From Elusimicrobiota bacterium (GTDB lineage: Bacteria > Elusimicrobiota > Elusimicrobia > Elusimicrobiales > UBA9959), in assembly GCA_019135865.1 (NCBI GenBank), contig JAGVVD010000038.1, positions 364-64,363 of the forward strand: a stretch of DNA of 64,000 nt, in the 5' to 3' direction. Shown here one piece after another: positions 11,452-62,634 of the stretch. Position 1 is the stretch's first letter, and the number at the start of each line of letters is the position of its first letter. Below the pieces are notes generated by a model. That model worked only from the letters and a program-made list of their open reading frames with translations, searched no databases and was not told where the DNA came from. A program made the translations under genes and the position numbers.

Positions 11452-11513
11452 TCCCCTCCTCAGGTTGTGTAATATTGCTTTGTCGAAGAGCAATCACACA
11501 CCCAAGGAGGGGA
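11452..11513 (+). promoter_or_regulatory. long imperfect hairpin sequestering the transposase RBS
   Basis: tcccctcct(11452-11460) pairs with aggagggga(11505-11513, containing the SD). There is an inner stem attgct/agcaat. Confidence 0.5.
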
Positions 11514-12538
11514 TGTATATGAAATTATACGCGGCAATCGACCTGCATTCAAATAACAGCGTGCTTGTAGTGCTGGACGGCGAGGATAAGATCGTCTATG
11601 AAAAGCGGCTGCCCAACGAGCTGCCGGTCATCCTGGCCGAGCTGGAGCCTTACCGGGAACGCATCCACGCGATAGCGGTGGAATCCACGTTCAACTGGTA
11701 CTGGCTGGTGGACGGGCTCATGGACGCCGGCTACGAAGTGAAGCTGGTGAACACGGCGGCGGTGAAGGTCTACGAGGGGCTCAAATACAGCGCCGACGAG
11801 CACGACGCCAGACACCTGGCGCACCTATCGCGCCTTGGCCTGCTGCCCGTGGGACACATATACCCGAAAGAGGACCGCGCCGTGCGCGACCTGCTGCGCA
11901 AGCGCTCGCAGCTGGTGCGCTACCGCACGATGCAGATACTGAGCATACAGAACCTGATAGGCAGGAACAGCGGCAGGCGGATCAACACCGACGGGGTCCG
12001 CAAGCTGACCGACGAGGCGATAGCCGACTACTGCGGCGGCGACGAAGTCCTGGAGCTGGCTATAAAAAGCAACCTCAAGACGCTGCGCTGCCTCGACGGG
12101 CAGACAACCGAACTGGAAGAAGCCGTCCTTAAAAGAGCGAAGCTCAAACCCCAGTTCAAGCAGCTGCTGACGGTGGACGGCATCTGGCATATCCTGGGGA
12201 TGACCATTATGTACGAGGCCGGCGACATGTCGCGCTTCAAGAAAGTCGGCCACTTCGCTTCCTACGCCCGCTGCGTCGGCAGTTCGCGCTGGAGCAACCA
12301 CAAGAAGAAAGGCGAAGGCAACCGGAAGAACGGCAACAAGTACCTGGCCTGGGCGTTCATAGAGGCGGCGCATTACGCGGTGCGCTACAATGATCGGATC
12401 CGCAGATTCTACCAGCGCAAGCGGGACAAGACCAATAAGATAGTGGCGGCCAAGGCGGTGGCGCATAAGCTGGCTCGGGCCTGCTATCACGTGCTGAAAG
12501 AGCAGACGCCCTTCGAGGAGGCGCGCGCTTTCAGTTGA
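11513..12538 (+). CDS. IS110 family transposase (DEDD/RuvC-like N-domain plus Transposase_20 C-domain)
   Basis: MKLYAAIDLHSNNSVLVV... N-terminus. C-terminus LLTVDGIWHILGMTIMYEAGDMSRF...ASYARCV...GNKYLAWAFIEAAHYAV. Confidence 0.9.
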   Translation: MYMKLYAAIDLHSNNSVLVVLDGEDKIVYEKRLPNELPVILAELEPYRERIHAIAVESTFNWYWLVDGLMDAGYEVKLVNTAAVKVYEGLKYSADEHDARHLAHLSRLGLLPVGHIYPKEDRAVRDLLRKRSQLVRYRTMQILSIQNLIGRNSGRRINTDGVRKLTDEAIADYCGGDEVLELAIKSNLKTLRCLDGQTTELEEAVLKRAKLKPQFKQLLTVDGIWHILGMTIMYEAGDMSRFKKVGHFASYARCVGSSRWSNHKKKGEGNRKNGNKYLAWAFIEAAHYAVRYNDRIRRFYQRKRDKTNKIVAAKAVAHKLARACYHVLKEQTPFEEARAFS

Positions 12539-42394: not shown

Positions 42395-42413
42395 ATAACC
42401 CCTCCTTCACATG

Positions 42414-42447
42414 AAAAAGGCCCCAGACAGGGGCCTTTTTCGTTTTT
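42414..42447. terminator. bidirectional terminator (ends both the aguA-like gene and the ech operon)
   Basis: aaaaaggcccc-agaca-ggggccttttt cgttttt. Confidence 0.75.
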
Positions 42448-47589: not shown

Positions 47590-48003
47590 TCAGGAAGGGC
47601 GCTTGCCCTTTTTCTCTTTGGCCGCTTTGAGGGCGGCCTCGATTTCCTCGGCCAACTTGGTCGGGGGGATGGGTTTGGCGAGGAATTTGCGGACCGGGAG
47701 CCAGTCTGCGTCCTTGTCCTCGTCGAACTTCCAGTCGCTTCTCATGTGTTCCTGCACTCCGGTCAGCATCAGCACCGGCATGTCGGGGAACTTTATGCTC
47801 ACGTCCCGGGCCAGCTCGAAGCCGGAAGTGAACTCCTCCATCATTACGTCCATCACGAGCAGGTCCGGCCGCCGCTTCTCCAGCAGCTTCCAGGCGTCGT
47901 CGCCGGTATACGCGACGGAAACCTCGTGTCCTTTGGCTTCAAGCACCAGTTTATTGGCGTCCACCAAACCCGCGTCGTCGTCTATCAGAAGTATATGGGC
48001 CAT
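47590..48003 (-). CDS. single-domain response regulator
   Basis: MAHILLIDDD...LLVMDVMM...FLAKP. Confidence 0.9.
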   Translation of the reverse strand: MAHILLIDDDAGLVDANKLVLEAKGHEVSVAYTGDDAWKLLEKRRPDLLVMDVMMEEFTSGFELARDVSIKFPDMPVLMLTGVQEHMRSDWKFDEDKDADWLPVRKFLAKPIPPTKLAEEIEAALKAAKEKKGKRPS

Positions 48004-49202: not shown

Positions 49203-51179
49203 TCATTCGCCCCCTCTGGGTAGAGTGATGGTGAACACGGTGCCGGTGGGGCCGGCCGCGGGATCGCTGTTGGAGGCCACCTTCAGCTCGCCCTTGTGCA
49301 TCCTCACTATACCGTAGGTTATCGCCAGGCCCAGGCCGGTGCCCTTGCCGATCTGCTTGGTGGTGAAGAAAGGCGTGAACACCTTGGGAAGGTTCTCGGC
49401 CGAAATGCCCGAACCGGTGTCGGCCACCTCTATGCGGACGGCGGACTCATCGTCGAGCAGACGCACGTCCACCCGCCCGCCGCCCGGCATCGCGTCGGCC
49501 GCGTTGACCACCAGGTTGGTCAGGGCCTGTATGAGGCGGTCCCTGTCCACTTCGATCTCGGGGTCCCGCATCCGGTTCTCCAGGACCGCGCTGATCCCCG
49601 GCGGCAGGGTCAAGGTCTTGAGAAAAGCCCCGACCAGTTCCGGAAGGCCGGTCTTCTCCGGGACCACGCGGTTCTGCCGCGCGAAATTCAGAAGCCCGGA
49701 AACTATCTTCTTGCAGCGGTCCGATTGCTCCACGATGTTCTGGAGCCACTCCTTCATGGAGGGGTCGGTGCAGCGCTCCAGCATGATATGGGAGTACATC
49801 AGCACTATTCCCAACGGGTTGTTGACCTCGTGGGCGATACCCGCGGCGAGCTGGCCTATGCTGGAAAGCCGTTCGGAATCGGCCAGTTGCTGGCGCGTCT
49901 CGGAGAGCTCCCGGTAGAATTTGCCCACCTTCGCGAGCGAATCGTTGAGCTGGTCGATGGTATAGGGCAGGCACATCCGCTCTTCGGCGAAACCGCGGCA
50001 GATGGCGGAGGCGTGGGCGCGGCAGGTGTCGTAGCCGCAGGCGCCGCAGTTAAGCTCGTCCTCCGCGCTGTTCTTGCCCATTTCGGAAAGCACTTCTTTC
50101 AGCGCGGTCTCGGACACCTCCGGCTGCGGCTGGGGGTCCGGCTTGTAGACGCGGCTGAGGTCCAGGTCCCTGAAACTCTCCACGTCCCGATACCACTTGC
50201 CGGTATCCAGGCCGGCCATGGTCACCCGCGCGCAGCGGCTGACCTGGAAGCGGCGATTGAACAGCGGGATGTCCTTGTCTATGCCCGGCCCCATGATGCA
50301 GCCCATGCAACTGGTCACTTCCAGCAGCCGGGTGTTGAGCTGCTCGTTGCGGAATTCCCTTATGGCCTCCACGAACTCCGTTCGTCCCTCGGCGGAGACC
50401 GCATTGCCGGTCAGCAGGTCCTCCGGGATGCCGGCCGACTGCAGCAACCCGCGTCCTATGGGGTACAGGCGGCCCTTGCCGGCCCTGGGCGGATCGAAAT
50501 CGGACGGGACTATGTTCGAAGTTCCGGTTTTTTCCCCGAAGATACGGTCCAGTTCGCTGAAGGTCAGCGCGGCGTCCACGTCCATATCGAGGGCTTCGAG
50601 CTTTTTGGCGACGCAGGGGCCGATGAAGACGACTCGCAGCGCGGCACCGTGCAGCCGGCGGGCCACCCTGGCGGCTGCCGCCATGGGGGAGACGACCGGC
50701 GCCAGGTTCGGCACCAGGTCAGGGAAATACTTGGTTATATGAGAGACCACCGCCGGACAGGTGGCGGCGATCAGGCGCGTGGTGGCGGGGTTGGTGAGCA
50801 GCTCCTGGTAGCGTTGCGACACCAGGTCGGCGCCGAAAGCCACTTCGTGCACGTACTTGAAGCCGAGCGCGCGCAGCGTGCCCACCAGGCGCTGCTGATC
50901 CCATTCGGGGAACTGGCAGGGCCAGCTGGGGGCCACCAGGGCCGCCGTTTCCGCCCCGGAAGCCAGCAGGTCCAGAACCTCGCGGGTGGAATCGTAGAAC
51001 CGCTTGGCGCCGCGGCCGCAGACCCGCACGCAGTTGCCGCAACCTATGCAGAGTTCGCTCATGACCTCGGCGCGGCCCTTGTGGATGCGTATGGCCTTGG
51101 CCGGGCATTCGCGCACGCAGGTATAGCAGGCCCGGCATTTGTCGGCGTCGGTCCAGATGAGCTTGTCGGTCTTCTTCAT
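49203..51179 (-). CDS. sensor histidine kinase with N-terminal 2x[4Fe-4S] ferredoxin, [FeFe]-hydrogenase-like (H-cluster-type) domain and a CxxC Fe-S motif
   Basis: CRACYTCVRECP and CIGCGNCVRVC. H-cluster-like motifs AATCPAV, GPCVAKKLE and EVTSCMGCIMGPG. Also CGACGYDTCRAHASAIC, H-box IAHEVNNPL and DTGSGI...GTGLGLAI. Confidence 0.85.
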   Translation of the reverse strand: MKKTDKLIWTDADKCRACYTCVRECPAKAIRIHKGRAEVMSELCIGCGNCVRVCGRGAKRFYDSTREVLDLLASGAETAALVAPSWPCQFPEWDQQRLVGTLRALGFKYVHEVAFGADLVSQRYQELLTNPATTRLIAATCPAVVSHITKYFPDLVPNLAPVVSPMAAAARVARRLHGAALRVVFIGPCVAKKLEALDMDVDAALTFSELDRIFGEKTGTSNIVPSDFDPPRAGKGRLYPIGRGLLQSAGIPEDLLTGNAVSAEGRTEFVEAIREFRNEQLNTRLLEVTSCMGCIMGPGIDKDIPLFNRRFQVSRCARVTMAGLDTGKWYRDVESFRDLDLSRVYKPDPQPQPEVSETALKEVLSEMGKNSAEDELNCGACGYDTCRAHASAICRGFAEERMCLPYTIDQLNDSLAKVGKFYRELSETRQQLADSERLSSIGQLAAGIAHEVNNPLGIVLMYSHIMLERCTDPSMKEWLQNIVEQSDRCKKIVSGLLNFARQNRVVPEKTGLPELVGAFLKTLTLPPGISAVLENRMRDPEIEVDRDRLIQALTNLVVNAADAMPGGGRVDVRLLDDESAVRIEVADTGSGISAENLPKVFTPFFTTKQIGKGTGLGLAITYGIVRMHKGELKVASNSDPAAGPTGTVFTITLPRGGE

Positions 51180-51596: not shown

Positions 51597-51843
51597 GGCG
51601 GTTCCTCGACTGCGGTGTTTGAAAGGCGTGACCGACCGTATATATAAGGATAAATTCTTAGCGTCGTGCTTGTCAAGGAACGGGGAGGGGCCTCTGATCC
51701 AATATCCCGCGGGCGCCGCATGGATGACGCGCAGAGGTACGTGTCGTCGGGATCGCCGGGGCCGCGCCGGCGGTTTTACTATAATCCCGGTAGCGGCCGC
51801 CGGGGACCGTTGCCGTCAGCGCCGCGCACTGGAGGGAGGGACC

Positions 51844-53558: not shown

Positions 53559-54386
53559 CTATTCGTCGGCCATGGCGCGGAAACCGCAGCCGGCGCAGTG
53601 GGCGGGCATGGGGCCGCGTCCGGCTATGGAGGCGCGCAGGGCGGCGGCCTCCGGCGAGGAGAGTATCTCCGCCAGGGGCTTCTCCCGCAGGTCGCCCAAG
53701 GCCATGGCCCCGTCGCAATCTATGCAGCAGGGGACCACCCGGAGGTCGGAGAGGACGGCGAAATGATGGCGCAGACCCAGGCAGCCGGTCTTGCCGCCCC
53801 CCGGCCCGGAGCCGGGCCAGGAGAACAGGCCTCCGCCGGCGAAAAAGGTGCGCTCCGCCAGCTTCAGTCGCCGCTTGCCCGGGTCGGGGGCGTAACCGGG
53901 GAAGGCGGCCAGCAGCGCCGACCTGGCGGCCAGGCTGAAAGGATCGTCCGCGCCGCGAAGCCGGAACACCACGGTCAGCGCCGGCGGCCTGGAGCGGGCG
54001 AAGTCTATGAGCCTGCCCAGGGCCTCTTCCCATTTTTCGGGCGGCAGGGCCGAGAGGGCCTGGAGGGAGGGAGAGACCTGCGCCAGGCAGGGTTCGCGGA
54101 ATATCCCGGGCCCGAAACGGTCTATGAGCGTGCCGTTGGTCACCAGAGTGACTTTCAGCCCCAGTTCCGATGCCGCCGACAGGATGGCCGGGAATTCCGG
54201 GTGCAGCATCGGTTCCCCGAGAACGTGGAGGAAGACGCCGCCGGCCAGCGGCTTCACCTGGACGGCGACGGAGCGGAACTCGTCCGGGGTCATGACCCGC
54301 GGCGGGCGGGTCGAGCGCGCGCAGAAGGAGCAGGAGAGGTTGCACCTGTTGGTTATTTCTATGAAAGCCCGCCGGAACCTTGCCAT
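53559..54386 (-). CDS. radical SAM / SPASM-like domain protein
   Basis: CNLSCSFC (CxxxCxxC). C-terminal cysteines are VPCCIDCDG...HCAGCGF. Confidence 0.85.
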   Translation of the reverse strand: MARFRRAFIEITNRCNLSCSFCARSTRPPRVMTPDEFRSVAVQVKPLAGGVFLHVLGEPMLHPEFPAILSAASELGLKVTLVTNGTLIDRFGPGIFREPCLAQVSPSLQALSALPPEKWEEALGRLIDFARSRPPALTVVFRLRGADDPFSLAARSALLAAFPGYAPDPGKRRLKLAERTFFAGGGLFSWPGSGPGGGKTGCLGLRHHFAVLSDLRVVPCCIDCDGAMALGDLREKPLAEILSSPEAAALRASIAGRGPMPAHCAGCGFRAMADE

Positions 54387-55845: not shown

Positions 55846-56301
55846 ATGAATTTCAGGCATTCAAGGTCCGCGGCGGCCGCCGCCGCCGGCAGGTCGGGCG
55901 CCGGGCTCGGCGCGCTGATAATGAAACTCGATTCCCTGCTTTTTCTGGCCTCCGCGGAGGCGGGGTCCCCCGAAAAAGTCAAGCCCAGGCTGGCGGAGGC
56001 CCGTTCGGCCCTGGGGGAACTTTTCTCGGCCTGCGAGCGGCTGGACCCCTCGACGGCCCGGGTCCATGCCGGGACGCCCTCCCGTTCCGGGGCGGGAAGG
56101 ACCGGCCGCCTCACCCCCAAGGAGAAGGAGATAATAGTCCTTATAGCCCGGGGCCGGGCCGACAAGGAACTGGCCCGCGAACTCGGCGTTTCCGTCAATA
56201 CCATACACGCGCACCGCAATAATATAGCCCGCAAACTGGACATACATAAGCAGACGGACCTGGTGCGCTTCGCCATAAAGGAGAAGCTCGTCAGGGTCTG
56301 A
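55846..56301 (+). CDS. LuxR/GerE-family HTH regulator with an uncharacterised N-terminal region
   Basis: LTPKEKEIIVLIARGRADKELARELGVSVNTIHAHRNNIARKL. Confidence 0.85.
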   Translation: MNFRHSRSAAAAAAGRSGAGLGALIMKLDSLLFLASAEAGSPEKVKPRLAEARSALGELFSACERLDPSTARVHAGTPSRSGAGRTGRLTPKEKEIIVLIARGRADKELARELGVSVNTIHAHRNNIARKLDIHKQTDLVRFAIKEKLVRV

Positions 56302-56488: not shown

Positions 56489-56719
56489 TCAGATCAGGCC
56501 CTTGTAATTGAGGACGAACAGCAGCATCAGCAGTACCGCGAGTATACCGCACCAGAAAAGGATATTACCGATCAGCCGGCCGGCCCTGGCGCCACGGGGG
56601 GGCGCCTGGCCGGCTTCCGTTTTGGGGAATTTCCTGAGCAACAGGCGGCCCGCCACGATCGGCGCGAGCGGGATGGCGGCCAGCAGCAGCAGTTCGAGCA
56701 GGGCTTTGAAGTCGCTCAT
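56489..56719 (-). CDS. small 2-TM membrane protein
   Basis: MSDFKALLELLLLAAIPLAPIV.... The start overlaps the upstream stop (ATGA coupling). Confidence 0.5.
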   Translation of the reverse strand: MSDFKALLELLLLAAIPLAPIVAGRLLLRKFPKTEAGQAPPRGARAGRLIGNILFWCGILAVLLMLLFVLNYKGLI

Positions 56720-57621
56720 GGTTCCACTTCCGCCCCGTTGATATAGCATGCCCTGACTCCCGCGACATAGCCGGGACTGGTGGCCTCTTCCCTGCCGAGC
56801 AGGTGGCTGACGCCCGGCAGGCGTTCCGGCACGAGGCCGAAGGTGCGGTAGCCGCAGACCTTGGTCCCGCGCAATTCAAGGCTGGTATCCTGGGCCAGGT
56901 CCTTGTTCCACGCGTCTTCCCAGAATTCGCGCGCCTCCCGCGCGTCCACGCCGTTGAGACGGTCGCTGAAATAGGGGAGGCTGAAATAGACCAGGCGGCG
57001 GGTGATGGTCGAGAGCCCGAAAAAAGGATTAAAGCTCGTACGCGTGCCCACGGAGGAAGTATTGCAGCCGGAGAAATCCAGTGTGGCGCCGGGGGCCATT
57101 TTTCCCCTGAGCAGTTCCCCCGCATCTTCAGACCCGAGGCCGTAGGCCGGGTCCACAGTCTGATAGCCCGGCGCGCCGTGGCCGTAGAACTGGATGTAGG
57201 TTATGGACCCGTCCGGCAGTTTTCGTATGGCGGCCGCCGCGTCGGCGCCTTTCCTGAAGGTCAGGGGCTCCGAGGACCCGCGGACATGGATGGTCACGCC
57301 ATGCGCCCCCGTGGACTTCTCCTCCGCCGCGCCGGAAGAGGCCGCCTTGTTCGAGCTCACGGGAGGGGGCGTGACAGGCACGGACTTGGGCTGGGGGGCG
57401 GTGTACTGTACCGGCTGGCTGCGCGACGGCGCTATGTCCATCTCCGGCGCGCCGGAGCCCCGGCCGGCATTGTCGTAGAATTCGGCCAGGTCCTGCATCC
57501 CCATCTCCCCGCCGGCGGGTACGTCGTCGGCGATAGTGGCCGGGGACGGAGGGGCCTCCGTCTCCGCCGAAAGGGCGGCCGCCGGCGGCAGGACCAGCGC
57601 CAGTACCAGGAACTTAAGCAT
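56716..57621 (-). CDS. secreted protein with a DUF4347-like HG...C pattern
   Basis: Signal MLKFLVLALVLPPAAALSA. YIQFYGHGAPGY...ATLDFSGCNTSS. Promoter TTGACA-16-TAAACT ends 8 nt upstream of the ATG. Confidence 0.6.
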   Translation of the reverse strand: MLKFLVLALVLPPAAALSAETEAPPSPATIADDVPAGGEMGMQDLAEFYDNAGRGSGAPEMDIAPSRSQPVQYTAPQPKSVPVTPPPVSSNKAASSGAAEEKSTGAHGVTIHVRGSSEPLTFRKGADAAAAIRKLPDGSITYIQFYGHGAPGYQTVDPAYGLGSEDAGELLRGKMAPGATLDFSGCNTSSVGTRTSFNPFFGLSTITRRLVYFSLPYFSDRLNGVDAREAREFWEDAWNKDLAQDTSLELRGTKVCGYRTFGLVPERLPGVSHLLGREEATSPGYVAGVRACYINGAEVEP

Positions 57622-57679
57622 AGCGATATAGTTTACCCTGTCCCCCGTCATTGTCAAGGGCCCCGGAGGAGGCCGGATG

Positions 57680-58279: not shown

Positions 58280-59565
58280 CTCATGTGCCAGGTCACCAGT
58301 ACCGGGCGCTCCGGCAGGCCGGGCGGGGGATTGGTGTTGAGGCCGGTGTCGTAGGTCATCGTGGTGCCGCCGCCGAAACCGCTGGTGGTTATCGGCTTGT
58401 TCCTGGTCCCGTATATGTAAAGCCGTTTCGAGGAGCCGCCGGAGGCGCTGATATTGGCCGAACTGCGGTTGAAGATGACGGCGCAGACGGTGAGGTCCTG
58501 ATCGGTGCCGGAGGTCTTCCCCGTCAGCGTTATGCCGTTGGAAGCTACCAGGGCCATGGAACTGCCGAGCGCGGCGGAGGTGGTGGTCCCGCCGGTGAGC
58601 GGATCGTAATAGAACAGGTCCGAATCGGCCGAGGACTGCCCTACCGTTATCTTTCCCTTGGAGCCGCTGGTATTGGTGGTGGCCACCGTGACCCGGCCCC
58701 GTACCGTGCCGTAGACGGTGAGATTGACGTTGTCGCCCAGCACTATCATCCCGCTCTCCACCACCGGCACGGTTATCGTGGTCCCGATTATGCTGAAGGT
58801 GGAGGAAGAGGGATGGGCGTTGAACCGCAGCGTCCTGTCGGACCCGGATATCCGGTAGGCGTAGTTCGCCTCGTAGTAATCCTCGCGCATCTCCGGATAG
58901 ATCATGTCGCTGGGATAGAAGTTGTAGGCGGTGCCGTCCACGGCGGGAGAGCCGCTCAGCGAGCCGCCGTAGTAAAGGTCGCCGTCGACCCTGACATTGC
59001 CGCCGCTGACGGAGAGATTGCCGCCGACGATCAGCGGCCCGCCTGCGAAGCGCACATTGTCGCCGGTTATGGAGAGGTTGCCTGTTATCCACCATTTGCC
59101 GTAATAGGTGACGTTGTCGGCGCTGATCGTGAAGGCCCCGTTGATCAGCGTGCCGTAGTCGGTCAGGTCCGAGATGAACTGCACGGCGGCGGAAAGTCTC
59201 CTGCCGGCCAGCGGCGCGTCCGGGTCCTTCCCGTACTTCCCCCTGGCCTCTATGTAAAGCGCGTGCGCGGCGGGATAGGCCTCGTAATCCACCTCGGTGA
59301 AGCCGGCCTCGTAAAAGGAGCGGTTCCTGTCGAGCGACGCCGCGTCGTAATGCCCGGCGAAATAATCCTGGGAGAACTGCCGCATGTAGTCGATCATGGC
59401 CTGCGAAGCCAGCGCCGCCGCTTCGCTCTGCTGCCGCTCGCGCATGGAATGGCGCAGGGCCACCCCCGCGTTCCAGGAAAGATAGACGAAGGTCGGCAGC
59501 AGGAAGAGGGACAGCAGTATGACCATCACCAGCCCCATGCCGGGCCGCGAGCGGAGGGGCTTCAT
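58276..59565 (-). CDS. PilX/GspK-like minor pseudopilin with a beta-helix-like repeat region
   Basis: MKPLRSRPGMGLVMVILLSLFLL (no Glu+5). Repeats GNLSITGDNVRFAGGPLIVGGNLSVSGGNVRVDGDLYYGG. Confidence 0.6.
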   Translation of the reverse strand: MKPLRSRPGMGLVMVILLSLFLLPTFVYLSWNAGVALRHSMRERQQSEAAALASQAMIDYMRQFSQDYFAGHYDAASLDRNRSFYEAGFTEVDYEAYPAAHALYIEARGKYGKDPDAPLAGRRLSAAVQFISDLTDYGTLINGAFTISADNVTYYGKWWITGNLSITGDNVRFAGGPLIVGGNLSVSGGNVRVDGDLYYGGSLSGSPAVDGTAYNFYPSDMIYPEMREDYYEANYAYRISGSDRTLRFNAHPSSSTFSIIGTTITVPVVESGMIVLGDNVNLTVYGTVRGRVTVATTNTSGSKGKITVGQSSADSDLFYYDPLTGGTTTSAALGSSMALVASNGITLTGKTSGTDQDLTVCAVIFNRSSANISASGGSSKRLYIYGTRNKPITTSGFGGGTTMTYDTGLNTNPPPGLPERPVLVTWHMR

Positions 59566-60404
59566 CTCCTCCTCCTCAGCGGCAGCAGCGGCGGCGAGAT
59601 ATGCGTGCGCAGGAAGGCGTCCGCCCTGCCGTCGGAATTGTAGTCGCACTCGGCGTAGAGCTCTATGGTCGTGACGTACTTGAGCTCGTCCGGGGTGTTT
59701 ATGGACCCGCTGCGGTTGCCGTGCCCGCCCTGGGCCGGCCGGACCCAGTCGATCTCGCGCGCGGTTATCATGCCGTCGCCCTCCCCCGTGTCGTTGGTGG
59801 AGGGCATGCCGTCGTTGCCCAGGTCTATATTGCGGCCCAGGTCCTCCCGCTTGGAGCCCTGCGGGATGAAGGAGAAGGAACTGATGTTCACGCCCAGCCG
59901 CTTCACGGCCGCGGCTCCGCCGTTGTATACGGACGAAAGGTACACCGCGCGCTCGGCCGGGACATAATAGAAGGACCTCATGCAGTCGCGGTTCCCGTCG
60001 TTGTCGTCGTCGTCGTCCTCCAGGTCGTAACCCACCCGCCACTGCTGGCTGGAGGGGAGGGAGAAGCGCTGGGCCGCGTCCCCGTCGTCGTCGGTGTCCT
60101 TCAGGTCGGGGATGCCGTCGCCGTCGCGGTCGCCGGCCGGCGTGTACCAGGGGGCCTCCTCCGAGCCGCAGAGGATGGTGACGGAGGAGGCCGAGACGCC
60201 GGTGAAGGCTACGGCGGGGTGCAGGCCGTCCGAGAGCCGGGAAAATAGCAGCCGCAGCTCGGCCGAGGCCTGTACCTTATGTTCGGCGGTCTTGGCGCTC
60301 TTCATGAAGCCGCCGAAATAGCCGGCGAAAGCGACGATGGCGATGGACATCACCGCCAGGTAGACCATCAGCTCGACAAGGGTGACGCCCTTTCTCAGGC
60401 TCAT
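59562..60404 (-). CDS. type IV pilin-like pseudopilin with thrombospondin-type-3-like Ca-binding Asp repeats
   Basis: MSLRKG|VTLVELMVYLAV prepilin motif. DRDGDGIPDLKDTDDDGD and DDDDDNDGNRD. Confidence 0.75.
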   Translation of the reverse strand: MSLRKGVTLVELMVYLAVMSIAIVAFAGYFGGFMKSAKTAEHKVQASAELRLLFSRLSDGLHPAVAFTGVSASSVTILCGSEEAPWYTPAGDRDGDGIPDLKDTDDDGDAAQRFSLPSSQQWRVGYDLEDDDDDNDGNRDCMRSFYYVPAERAVYLSSVYNGGAAAVKRLGVNISSFSFIPQGSKREDLGRNIDLGNDGMPSTNDTGEGDGMITAREIDWVRPAQGGHGNRSGSINTPDELKYVTTIELYAECDYNSDGRADAFLRTHISPPLLPLRRRR

Positions 60405-60405
60405 A

Positions 60406-62634
60406 TCAGGGCCAGGCGACCGTGAAATTCCAGGACTGCACGGAGGTCTTCTTTTCCGGCGGATCGTCCGCCCAGTGGCTGACCCTGACCTCCACGGTAT
60501 GAGGGGAACCGGGCGCGAAAGCGGCGGAAGGCAGCCAGGACAGTTTCCCGCTTTCCGGGTCCCAGTACGAGGCGATGGTCCCGGAGGAGACGATCGGCTC
60601 CCCGTCCAGCCGCAGCTCTATGCTGTAAGGGTCTATGCCCGACTGATTGTCGAAGAGCCGGCAGCCTATCTCCGGCAGCGGGTCCGCATTGGCTCCCTGC
60701 GGGACCATATTGGCGATAGAAGGCGCGGAAGGGTCCGGGTCCGAGACGGCTACCGTGAAGGTCCAGGTGGAGATGGTCTTGTAATAGGCCCGGTCGCCGC
60801 CCTCCGCCGTTACCGTGTAGGAGGAGCCGTTGGCGAGCTTGTTGGGCAGGCCTCCGGCGCCGCGCCAGGAGATGCGGCCGCTGGCCGCGTCGTAATCGAA
60901 GGGTACCGCGGTCCCGTTCACCCGCAAGGAGACAGTCTCGGGACATATCCCGGAGACGGCCGCGCCGGCCGAAAGCGGCTGGTCCGACAGTACGGCGCCG
61001 ACATAGGGCATCAGGTCCGGCACCGCCCCGGAGGGGGCCTGGCTGGAGACCGCCGGTGGATCGAGGTCCAGCACGACCCGCCGCTGGGCGAACGGGGAAT
61101 AATAGGAGTCCTTGGAGGCCTTGGCGTAGAGCAGGTTCTCTCCCTCCGCCAGGACCGAGGTGACGGCCAGCGACTGGAAGTCGAAAGCGCCCGAGGCGTC
61201 CGCCGGACGCGAGTCGGAGGGGGAGGCCATGGAATTGACGTAAAAACCGACGCTGGCCAGCGGCGCCGTCTCTCCCGCGAGGCGCAACGGGTAGCCGGCG
61301 TCGGCCCTGTAAGCGATGACCTCCGCGGGGTAGGATTTTGCGATGCCGGCCGCGAAGGCCGCCGCCCGTCCGGCTTCCATCAGGTCGTAAAGATAGGTGT
61401 CGTTGGCCGGCTCTTCCACGAGCATCTTGAGCTCGGCGCCGCTGGACCGGCTCTCTATGCCGCTGAGCATTTCCAGGGAGATCAGCTCGGTCCTGGAATG
61501 CAGCCGGCGGCCGCGCTTGTAGAGACGCAGCGTGACCTCTTTCAGGTTGGTGTCCGGCAGTTCGCTGACGGTCCGGCCCGGCGAGCCGGTGACATAGGTG
61601 TCGTAATAGTCGGCGTCGGCGTTGGCCTTGTAATAGCGTATCGAGGCGTCGTAGTCGTCGACGAGGTTAGCGTCGGCGTCGGTGAAATCGCGCAGGTCGC
61701 CGGTCAGCCCGTCGCCGGTCACGTCGGAAACGTCCCTGACCTTGAACTTCAGTTCGACGGTCCAGCGGTCCACGGAGTAGCGCGAAGCGATCGCCGTGAT
61801 CTCGTCGAGCAGGCCGCGGTAGGGATAGGAGGGCCGCTGCTGGGTCACGGGACCGTAGGTGCCGGAGAGGCCGTAGTTAGGCTGCGCCGAATCGTAGGCG
61901 AAGAGATAGTGGTACTCTATGCTCTTGAGCTTCTCGAAGATGGAATCCGTCAGCCGCGTGGAGGCGGTGTTCTCCAGGGTGCGCGTCATCATCACCTGCA
62001 GGTAGCGGTGCATATAGGCGACCGAAAGGCTCAGCACCGCCAGCAGGAAGATGGAGATCATGGCCTCCACGAGGCCGAAGCCCGCCCGGAGCCGCGCGCC
62101 CTGCGGCCGGCGCGCGCCGGCCGGGAGCCGGCCGCCCGAAGCCAGGGCGTAGAAGACGAGCAGGGAGAGCGGCAGGACCAGGGCCGAATGCGCGACCAGG
62201 CTCAACAGGGCCTCCCCGTGGACCCGTCTTATGACGGCCGGTCCCAGTTCGGGATAGGAAGCGGAAGCGAAGAGCAGCGCCCCCGAGTAAAATCCCAGGA
62301 AAAGGGCGAAGAGGGCGAAAACGGCGCCGGAAACGGCCTTTTCGGCCGGGGTGCGTTCCGAAGCCCGCGTCCCGGCGAAGGAGCCTCCGGCCAGCAGGTA
62401 GAAGAAAAGCAGAGAAAAGGGCAGGAGGATGGAGGAGAGCAGGAGCAGGCCGGAACGCGAGCCGGACTGCAGCGCGGCGGCCAGTTCCAGGGTGAGCACG
62501 GACGAGGTCCCGGGCAGGAAGACCGCGGCCCCGGCGTAGAAGCCGACCAGGACGGCGAAAAGGGAGAGCACGAAGCCGGCCGCGGCGTAGACCGCGGGAG
62601 AGGAAAGACCGGCCCGGGGAAGGGCTTTTTTCAT
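60406..62634 (-). CDS. large pseudopilin-like protein: about 185-aa 4-TM N-terminal region, internal prepilin motif, Ig-like C-terminal repeats
   Basis: RLRAG|FGLVEAMISIFLLAVL at residues 181-200. Upstream are two copies of a 2-TM unit. The C-terminus has SGRISWRG...YTVTA and SGKLSWLP...HTVEV. Confidence 0.65.
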   Translation of the reverse strand: MKKALPRAGLSSPAVYAAAGFVLSLFAVLVGFYAGAAVFLPGTSSVLTLELAAALQSGSRSGLLLLSSILLPFSLLFFYLLAGGSFAGTRASERTPAEKAVSGAVFALFALFLGFYSGALLFASASYPELGPAVIRRVHGEALLSLVAHSALVLPLSLLVFYALASGGRLPAGARRPQGARLRAGFGLVEAMISIFLLAVLSLSVAYMHRYLQVMMTRTLENTASTRLTDSIFEKLKSIEYHYLFAYDSAQPNYGLSGTYGPVTQQRPSYPYRGLLDEITAIASRYSVDRWTVELKFKVRDVSDVTGDGLTGDLRDFTDADANLVDDYDASIRYYKANADADYYDTYVTGSPGRTVSELPDTNLKEVTLRLYKRGRRLHSRTELISLEMLSGIESRSSGAELKMLVEEPANDTYLYDLMEAGRAAAFAAGIAKSYPAEVIAYRADAGYPLRLAGETAPLASVGFYVNSMASPSDSRPADASGAFDFQSLAVTSVLAEGENLLYAKASKDSYYSPFAQRRVVLDLDPPAVSSQAPSGAVPDLMPYVGAVLSDQPLSAGAAVSGICPETVSLRVNGTAVPFDYDAASGRISWRGAGGLPNKLANGSSYTVTAEGGDRAYYKTISTWTFTVAVSDPDPSAPSIANMVPQGANADPLPEIGCRLFDNQSGIDPYSIELRLDGEPIVSSGTIASYWDPESGKLSWLPSAAFAPGSPHTVEVRVSHWADDPPEKKTSVQSWNFTVAWP

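Follow-up and report, generated by a model that had tools for sequence, protein, structure and literature searches.

In the HydDB classification of [FeFe]-hydrogenases, Group C1 is listed as 'histidine kinase-linked, putative', and the same scheme further defines the chemotactic Group C2 and the phosphatase-linked Group C3 (Sondergaard et al. 2016, PMC5037454). A Cx2Cx4Cx16C motif and a missing proton pathway are common to groups C and D (PMC8163306). At the position of C299, the proton-relay cysteine of the catalytic enzyme CpI, sensory enzymes feature alanine (about 43%), proline and serine (about 10% each) or cysteine (17%), M353 is glycine in about 51% of them and M497 is unconserved (PMC10055695). 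TmHydS and TamHydS, which carry similar substitutions, possess a genuine H-cluster and show slow turnover (PMC10055695, PMC8163306). Fusions to a kinase were noted in 2020 in Elusimicrobia lineage V, next to Rex and a trimeric enzyme of group A (bioRxiv 10.1101/765248), and in 2024 in Hydrogenedentota (PMC11406978). Still, H2 sensing by groups C and D and the exit of the signal from the protein are unsettled matters, and the studied members are of the PAS type or stand-alone. The stretch of Elusimicrobiota DNA analyzed here (64 kb, 64% GC; hereafter the window) encodes a sensor histidine kinase with an input module derived from an [FeFe]-hydrogenase, located in a two-component cassette directly ahead of an ech operon. 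By its architecture, its motifs and the descriptions of equivalent proteins from metagenome-assembled genomes (MAGs), this sensor is assigned to HydDB [FeFe] Group C1. It is, with modest confidence, regarded as a probable cytoplasmic, H2-responsive kinase of the C1 type that controls the Ech hydrogenase.

The sensor gene has a G+C content at third codon positions of 0.85, which is typical for the real genes of the window, and this value together with thousands of full-length homologues rules out a chance open reading frame (ORF) or a pseudogene. A preliminary description, made by eye from the sequence, had assigned to the protein two ferredoxin motifs of the form CxxCxxCxxxCP, a C-terminal motif resembling the 'putative Fe-S cluster' domain and a direct fusion to HisKA/HATPase without a PAS domain. 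Both ferredoxin motifs are present as a Pfam Fer4 match, CRACYTCVRECP at residues 15-26 and CIGCGNCVRVCG at residues 44-55, but the second ends in CG instead of CP. The C-terminal stretch CGACGYDTCRAHASAICRGFAEERMC (residues 378-403) lies within a match to PF04060 that covers residues 376-405 and exceeds the cutoff (30.4 bits vs 23), in agreement with that description. Likewise, the direct fusion is borne out by the Pfam architecture and the short linker of about 45 residues. No PAS match was obtained in the sensor at E <= 0.01, and there is no room for such a domain because only about 40 residues separate C403, the last residue of the cluster motif, from HisKA; a PAS domain hidden in the linker was thus ruled out by linker length and zero matches. 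In the kinase part, the H-box AHEVNNPL provides His450 as phospho-acceptor, and the N (NLVVNAADA), G1 (DTGSGI), F (FTPFFTTK) and G2 (GTGLGLA) boxes are all intact. Its best match in the PDB is ZraS (E = 5e-33), and it has the features of a class I (HisKA-type) kinase.

For the active site, the sensor was aligned by MAFFT with an H-domain sequence of CpI that is 100% identical to residues 209-574 of PDB 1C4A/3C8Y. The H-cluster ligands C300, C355, C499 and C503 of CpI correspond to C141, C189, C291 and C294, the very cysteines to be expected from the preliminary comparison, which had proposed candidates for all four. Of the surrounding pocket, A230-P231-S232 is retained as A83-P84-S85, S323-P324 as S164-P165, with Q325 exchanged for M166, and K358 and E361 as K192 and E195. 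HMMER, applied to the sensor and to a family profile of 17 sequences, aligned both with T. maritima HydA (PDB 7p5h) and put the gaps in the same places as the alignment with CpI, and the profile search against hydrogenases in the PDB gave E values down to 2e-37. Because the alignments to CpI and HydA agree, all four H-cluster ligands and the Lys/Glu pair are considered to be present. The residues of proton transfer differ throughout. The relay cysteine C299 is replaced by T140, as had been suggested from the motif, E279 falls within a four-residue deletion, and E282, R286 and S319 are exchanged for R123, L127 and A160, respectively. The whole canonical proton-transfer chain is lost in the sensor. 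Moreover, both methionine positions are changed (M353 to G187, M497 to T289), and G501 is deleted, so that the third motif L3 (EVTSC-MGCIMGPG) is one residue short and features C-x2-C for C-x3-C, a shortening already noted in the preliminary description.

The canonical signatures TSCCPxW, MPCxxKxxE and ExMxCxxGCxxGGG are accordingly absent, AATCPAV, GPCVAKKLE and EVTSC-MGCIMGPG standing in their places; therefore, the protein is not a prototypical catalytic enzyme of group A, while its membership in the superfamily PF02906 is unaffected. The structure prediction proposed at the outset was performed with AlphaFold2 for residues 1-411 and gave a confident model (pLDDT 87.7, pTM 0.89) with a hydrogenase fold. 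Its top fold matches in the PDB (Foldseek) are all [FeFe]-hydrogenases, including CbA5H, DdH, TmHydA and CpI, with TM-scores of 0.6-0.71 and E values down to 2e-21.

These features are shared by a large family. The protein search yielded thousands of homologues. The best 120 cover the full length at 53-81% identity and agree in architecture; those with a named source belong to Planctomycetota, Verrucomicrobiota, Hydrogenedentota and Myxococcota. For the input module, an exhaustive search of 1.84 billion cluster representatives gave 959 clusters at E <= 1e-30. In a set of 121 close homologues, the position of C299 is occupied by T, S, N, A or P and never by Cys (121/121), that of M353 is always Gly, K358 and E361 are retained in all, and L3 reads C-x-G-C in every one of the 121. 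At the position of M497, leucine is found in 116 sequences vs Thr289 in the window sensor. [quoted passage not shown] Thus, the unusualness which the preliminary description had implied for these motifs is not supported, as they are common to all close homologues and belong to a class already catalogued.

The spacing of L3 was followed among the best 150 cluster representatives related to the input module (window 49920-51179). Representatives with C-x2-C are fused to a histidine kinase (43), a sigma54 AAA+ activator (14), GGDEF (4) or a methyl-accepting chemotaxis protein (MCP) output (2), and those with C-x3-C comprise 58 HydS-like proteins of the PAS type (about 575 aa) and one sigma54 protein; a short or unclassified C-terminal part occurs in a further 17 representatives with C-x2-C and two with C-x3-C. 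As the spacing splits by architecture, the shortened L3 is a hallmark of the directly fused signalling clade. This pattern of fusions marks the hydrogenase module of the C-x2-C clade as a portable input domain joined directly to signalling outputs. The association of L3 spacing with architecture was not found described in the literature searched, and the C-x2-C signature may serve as a marker for the clade. It also explains the failure of standard motif searches to detect the H-cluster site of C1 proteins (PMC11406978).

The genomic neighbourhood of the family was surveyed with one genome per species, which gave at least 596 loci with relatives; counts of context refer to the best 80 of these. 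The sensor is followed by a single-domain response regulator (REC) and a REC-HisKA-HATPase hybrid kinase in about 70 of the 80 loci, from more than 10 phyla, and in most of the 80 the order is hydCBA - sensor - REC - REC/kinase - hydGEF. HydA lies directly upstream of the sensor in 61 of the 66 loci whose upstream flank sufficed, and the maturase genes hydG, hydE and hydF were found within 10 kb downstream in 26, 19 and 13, respectively, of the 51 loci whose downstream flank sufficed. Unbiased clustering of neighbouring ORFs at the 80 loci gave NuoF-like HydB (66), NuoE-like HydC (54), Rex (39), HydE/HydG, which are maturases of the radical-SAM type (32), and HydF (16). An Elusimicrobium minutum MAG (locus L056) illustrates this arrangement with the order REC - Rex - HydC - HydB - HydA - sensor - REC - REC/kinase - HydG - HydE - HydF, in which HydA, HydG, HydE and HydF score above the curated cutoffs of NCBIfam. 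No Ech genes were found at any of the 80 loci, and the link to Ech is therefore regarded as clade-specific.

In the window, the cassette and the ech genes form one co-oriented, tightly spaced unit on the minus strand with the order REC - sensor kinase - REC/kinase hybrid - REC - echABCDEF (Table 1). The start codon of the hybrid kinase lies one base past the stop codon of the sensor. The large subunit EchE carries, as read in translation, the metal-binding motifs RVCGICS near its N-terminus and DPCISCMER near its C-terminus. With six subunits and the nickel CxxC motifs, the downstream operon has the predicted make-up of an Ech-type (group 4) membrane-bound [NiFe] hydrogenase. Searches by tblastn with queries from homologous loci revealed neither rex nor any of hydA, B, C, E, F and G in the 64-kb window, the matches being the sensor itself and cross-matches of Fer4.

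Two metagenome contigs from JGI (L081, L082) contain the ten-gene block with amino-acid identities of 75-97%; with contig k141_138234 of ENA ERZ27257504 (L085) included, the range is 75-98%, and the flanks are unrelated. Among the loci listed, the closest genome match (87% identity) is a truncated contig of the Elusimicrobiales MAG AMR_MDS_1278 (L001), which shows the upstream end of the unit only and overlaps L082; a probable origin of the window in Elusimicrobiota follows from this match. The first REC protein is 86-87% identical in L001, L081 and L082; the second is 81-88% identical in L081, L082 and L085 and shows 55% identity to the upstream REC of L001. A block containing the promoter candidate, TTGACAAG...TAAGRATTTATYCT, is kept in the window, L081, L082 and L001, and its surroundings diverge. 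The operon is mosaic in its similarities. The ech genes have their closest relative in L085 (93.5-98% identical, DNA 90-99%), whereas the input module (residues 1-375) of the L085 sensor (L085:10001-11998) is only 53% identical to that of the window (DNA 59-67%). Between the same two loci, the kinase half is 76%, the hybrid kinase 79% and the REC protein 88% identical, and the input module of the window is closest to L082/L001 (82-87%). One breakpoint falls close to window position 50,013, immediately ahead of the highly conserved DELNCGACGY stretch, and another close to 47,400, by the start of echA. Since ech and the input module have different nearest relatives, the latter has been swapped between related lineages as a cassette. 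In L085, the unit reads Rex - sensor - REC/kinase - REC - echABCDEF, and divergent from it (L085:2982-9990) stand Rex - NuoE - NuoF (a fusion of 1091 aa) - HydA - REC - GltD-like. Operons of a catalytic [FeFe] (group A) and of a [NiFe] hydrogenase hence flank one sensor cassette in this contig, and because the catalytic [FeFe]-hydrogenase adjoins the unit, the L085 lineage presumably possesses maturases.

Table 1. Features of the sensor gene and of the surrounding unit, with positions in the window
Feature	Position	Strand	Evidence
Sigma70-like promoter candidate TTGACA-18-TATCCT, before first gene	51647..51676	-	Consensus scan, 10/12 matches
First gene, REC-only single-domain response regulator, 130 aa	51204..51596	-	Pfam Response_reg E = 2.8e-15
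Sensor histidine kinase with [FeFe]-hydrogenase-derived input module, 658 aa	49203..51179	-	
Two ferredoxin-type [4Fe-4S] motifs, C15/18/21/25 and C44/47/50/54	51006..51158	-	Pfam Fer4, residues 8-58
H-domain, Fe_hyd_lg_C (PF02906), residues 78-298	50286..50948	-	Pfam E = 1.2e-39, 136.8 bits vs cutoff 22.1
APS pocket motif of H-domain	50919-50933	-	
L1 AATCPAV, residues 138-144	50748-50768	-	
L2 GPCVAKKLE, residues 187-195	50595-50621	-	
L3 EVTSCMGCIMGPG, residues 287-299	50283-50321	-	
C-terminal cluster motif Cx2Cx4Cx16C (C378, C381, C386, C403)	49971..50048	-	Pfam FeS PF04060
HisKA dimerisation and phospho-acceptor domain, residues 442-502	49674..49856	-	Pfam E = 4.7e-13
HATPase_c catalytic domain, residues 545-655	49215..49547	-	Pfam E = 4.8e-26
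Hybrid REC-HisKA-HATPase_c kinase, 383 aa	48050..49201	-	Pfam
Second single-domain response regulator, 137 aa, paralogue of first	47590..48003	-	Pfam
EchA-like membrane subunit (NuoL/antiporter-like), 643 aa	45582..47513	-	Pfam Proton_antipo_M, Proton_antipo_N; NCBIfam
EchB-like membrane subunit (NuoH-like), 285 aa	44737..45594	-	Pfam NADHdh
EchC-like [NiFe] small subunit (NuoB-like), 143 aa	44306..44737	-	Pfam Oxidored_q6; NCBIfam NuoB 138 bits vs cutoff 116
EchD-like subunit (NuoC-like), 131 aa	43914..44309	-	Pfam Complex1_30kDa
EchE-like [NiFe] large subunit, 357 aa	42844..43917	-	Pfam Complex1_49kDa, NiFeSe_Hases
EchF-like 2x[4Fe-4S] subunit (NuoI-like), 124 aa	42463..42837	-	ORF, motifs, NCBIfam NuoI-like; orthologues in L081, L082, L085
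Terminator-like stem-loop past echF	42401..42420	-	Pattern scan, weak

If the sensor is an H2-responsive kinase that controls Ech, its H-domain would be matured by HydEFG, and the complete H-cluster would have a slow reaction with H2 like that of TmHydS and TamHydS. Depending on H2, the H-cluster, or else relay clusters equilibrated with H2 and ferredoxin, would bring about a conformational change in the C-terminal cluster domain and in the linker, which in turn would set autophosphorylation at His450. The single-domain REC proteins and the second kinase, through its REC domain, would then receive the phosphoryl groups, and this multi-kinase network might tune the expression or the activity of the ferredoxin-dependent, H2-evolving Ech by ambient H2. 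The outcome would be that H2, as the product, feeds back on its own ferredoxin-driven evolution. For T. saccharolyticum hfs, PMC8924675 cites a precedent in which a group-C sensor affects the expression of ech.

Several points weigh against this proposal. Genes for HydE, HydF, HydG and a catalytic [FeFe]-hydrogenase were found neither in the window nor within 10 kb in L081 and L082, and according to Pfam none of the genes of the unit carries an output domain, be it DNA-binding or of another kind. The adjacency of hydEFG in relatives can be explained by the neighbouring HydA alone, and the conservation of motifs would be no proof of 2Fe binding. Eukaryotic Nar1/NARFL feature similar motifs and bind only [4Fe-4S] clusters. 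In addition, the C-terminal cluster of TamHydS was not reduced by H2, and the respective study from 2026, which calls for the identification of signalling partners, argues against the favoured signal route through this cluster (PMC13104023). The authors of the Hydrogenedentota study doubted an H-cluster in C1 proteins, as standard motif searches had failed (PMC11406978). Finally, the literature searched contained no biochemical study of a kinase-fused (C1) or C-x2-C member.

The lack of hydEFG in the window and near the three Ech-linked relatives also speaks for a sensor of redox, oxygen or Fe-S status, in which the site would hold the [4Fe-4S] subcluster without 2Fe, similar to Nar1. Such a sensor would be suited by the four predicted clusters, and all solved hydrogenases exceed it by one residue in the L3 loop, where the bridging cysteine is located; the failure of standard H-cluster motif searches on C1 proteins points in the same direction (PMC11406978). 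Nevertheless, this explanation, the main rival, is considered unlikely, since no variation across phyla is seen in the residues of the 2Fe pocket (A-P-S, S-P, Lys and Glu) and since the family almost always occurs in genomes, usually in operons, with hydA and often hydGEF. Moreover, a catalytic [FeFe]-hydrogenase adjoins the nearest relative (L085) of the window's ech operon, and the C-x3-C relatives TmHydS and TamHydS take up 2Fe despite similar substitutions (PMC10055695, PMC8163306). An evolutionary scenario that we hold to be rather doubtful goes one step further: in an Elusimicrobia-like lineage, the sensor would have been freed from hydABC/hydEFG to control a [NiFe] Ech now, and, if HydEFG is missing from the genome, the H-domain would amount to a bacterial counterpart of Nar1, a 2Fe-free Fe-S module exapted for redox sensing. 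If true, the strictly conserved C-x2-C deletion would mark a functionally distinct cofactor site.

A close variant of H2 sensing is a kinase that reads the ratio of reduced ferredoxin to H2, i.e., the driving force of Ech, with N-terminal clusters accepting electrons from ferredoxin and an H-cluster equilibrating with H+/H2. Ech-type enzymes of group 4 have an established ferredoxin/H2 function, and it is exactly this couple that Ech uses. The two N-terminal ferredoxin-type relay clusters are invariant, and the occurrence of Rex, a sensor of NADH, with the cassette in 40 of the 80 loci and in L085 suggests an integration of redox signals. Still, a working H-cluster would be required here as well, the sequence cannot separate the two modes, and there is no ferredoxin gene in the unit; sensing of the ratio is considered rather improbable. 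The protein might also be a slow hydrogenase or an accessory 'T' subunit of a complex, its kinase being secondary. For Hydrogenedentota, models of bifurcating complexes have group C proteins among their subunits (PMC11406978), and the turnover of TmHydS and TamHydS is measurable (PMC10055695, PMC8163306). However, the kinase boxes are all intact, conservation across phyla extends to the REC partners and the second kinase, a proton pathway is missing, and the window offers no HydB or HydC partner; a catalytic or structural role is hence judged very improbable. The sensory rather than catalytic role, which had been put forward in the preliminary description, is in line with a proton pathway missing as in TmHydS and TamHydS (PMC8163306, PMC10055695). 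It further agrees with the location of the gene inside a conserved two-component cassette, with relatives in hydABC/hydEFG operons of other phyla, and with the fusion of the same module to sigma54 activators, GGDEF and MCP outputs.

Beside the subjects treated so far, the unit and its surroundings show some further features. Both REC paralogues of the window share an unusual insertion past the LTGV segment (...W..DEDK.WLPV..F..KP). The intergenic region between the second REC gene and echA is poorly conserved, with no clear operator seen, and an Rfam scan of the window gave no matches. A radical SAM/SPASM protein of 275 aa is encoded 2 kb upstream of the unit (53559-54386, minus strand). As its best NCBIfam matches are tungsten-cofactor or sactipeptide maturases, far below the cutoffs, it was ruled out as HydE or HydG. 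A LuxR-type protein of 151 aa is encoded on the opposite strand (55846-56301, plus strand), 4.3 kb upstream of the unit. It has a C-terminal GerE helix-turn-helix, lacks any recognisable REC domain and is a conceivable output regulator. Mobile elements comprise an IS3-family element at 190-1546 (in which an HTH_Tnp_1-like ORF precedes the ORF of an rve integrase) and an IS110/IS116/IS902-family transposase at 11465-12538 (DEDD_Tnp_IS110 and Transposase_20). At least 23 further short contigs from metagenomes carry the identical 324-aa IS3 transposase, in their case beside a DNA methylase. A protein with an N-terminal prepilin-type methylation motif is encoded at 59562-60404 (minus strand), and the large ORFs at 60406-62634 and 56716-57657 near it have no Pfam match. 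Proteins with this motif are numerous in Elusimicrobium minutum, in keeping with the taxonomy proposed for the window.

Modestly new among these results are the clade-specific coupling to Ech, the mosaic exchange of the input module and the tie of C-x2-C to directly fused outputs. The wiring of an [FeFe]-type sensor to a [NiFe] Ech hydrogenase suggests a cross-class feedback control of fermentative H2 release. Furthermore, the hypothesis of H2 sensing is directly testable because the fused kinase has a built-in readout, i.e., autophosphorylation and phosphotransfer to three REC domains. This advantage is a property of the whole large C1 family and not of the window gene alone.

Among the known systems, HoxBC/HupUV with HoxJ/HupT (group 2b) resemble the proposed system in employing a slow hydrogenase as H2 receptor for two-component control of hydrogenases (PMC5037454). 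They differ from it in a [NiFe] site that is evolutionarily unrelated to the [FeFe] type and in the separation of sensor and kinase into two polypeptides, and they are well characterised. Group D (M2e) with TamHydS shares the lack of PAS, the C-terminal [4Fe-4S] motif and the missing proton pathway. However, serine or threonine is found there at the position of M353, vs Gly here, and the kinase-like protein of TamHydS is encoded by a separate gene; membership in group D was accordingly ruled out by this glycine, the nearest relatives being group-C-like. With TmHydS, the sensor has in common the N-terminal 2x[4Fe-4S] part, the H-domain, Cx2Cx4Cx16C and the replacement of M353 by glycine. The proton-relay cysteine is exchanged for alanine in TmHydS vs threonine here and M497 for serine vs threonine (PMC10055695), and TmHydS lacks a kinase part, its C-terminal end being a PAS domain. 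The PAS-type relatives of TmHydS feature C-x3-C in 58 of 58 among the best 150 representatives, from which its own spacing is deduced, vs C-x2-C here. The PAS-containing type of group C (M2f, HydS) was ruled out, as no PAS follows the C-terminal cluster. The closest likeness is that to Group C1, which is defined by an H-domain with group-C substitutions, Cx2Cx4Cx16C and a histidine kinase, fused here as in the cited MAG studies; the sensor shows the group-C replacements T140, G187 and T289 as well as the cluster motif and the linked kinase of C1. In contrast to the usual neighbourhood of this group, a trimeric group-A hydrogenase and Rex, the cassette of the window precedes a [NiFe] Ech operon instead of hydABC/hydEFG, and its sensor features T289 in place of the usual leucine.

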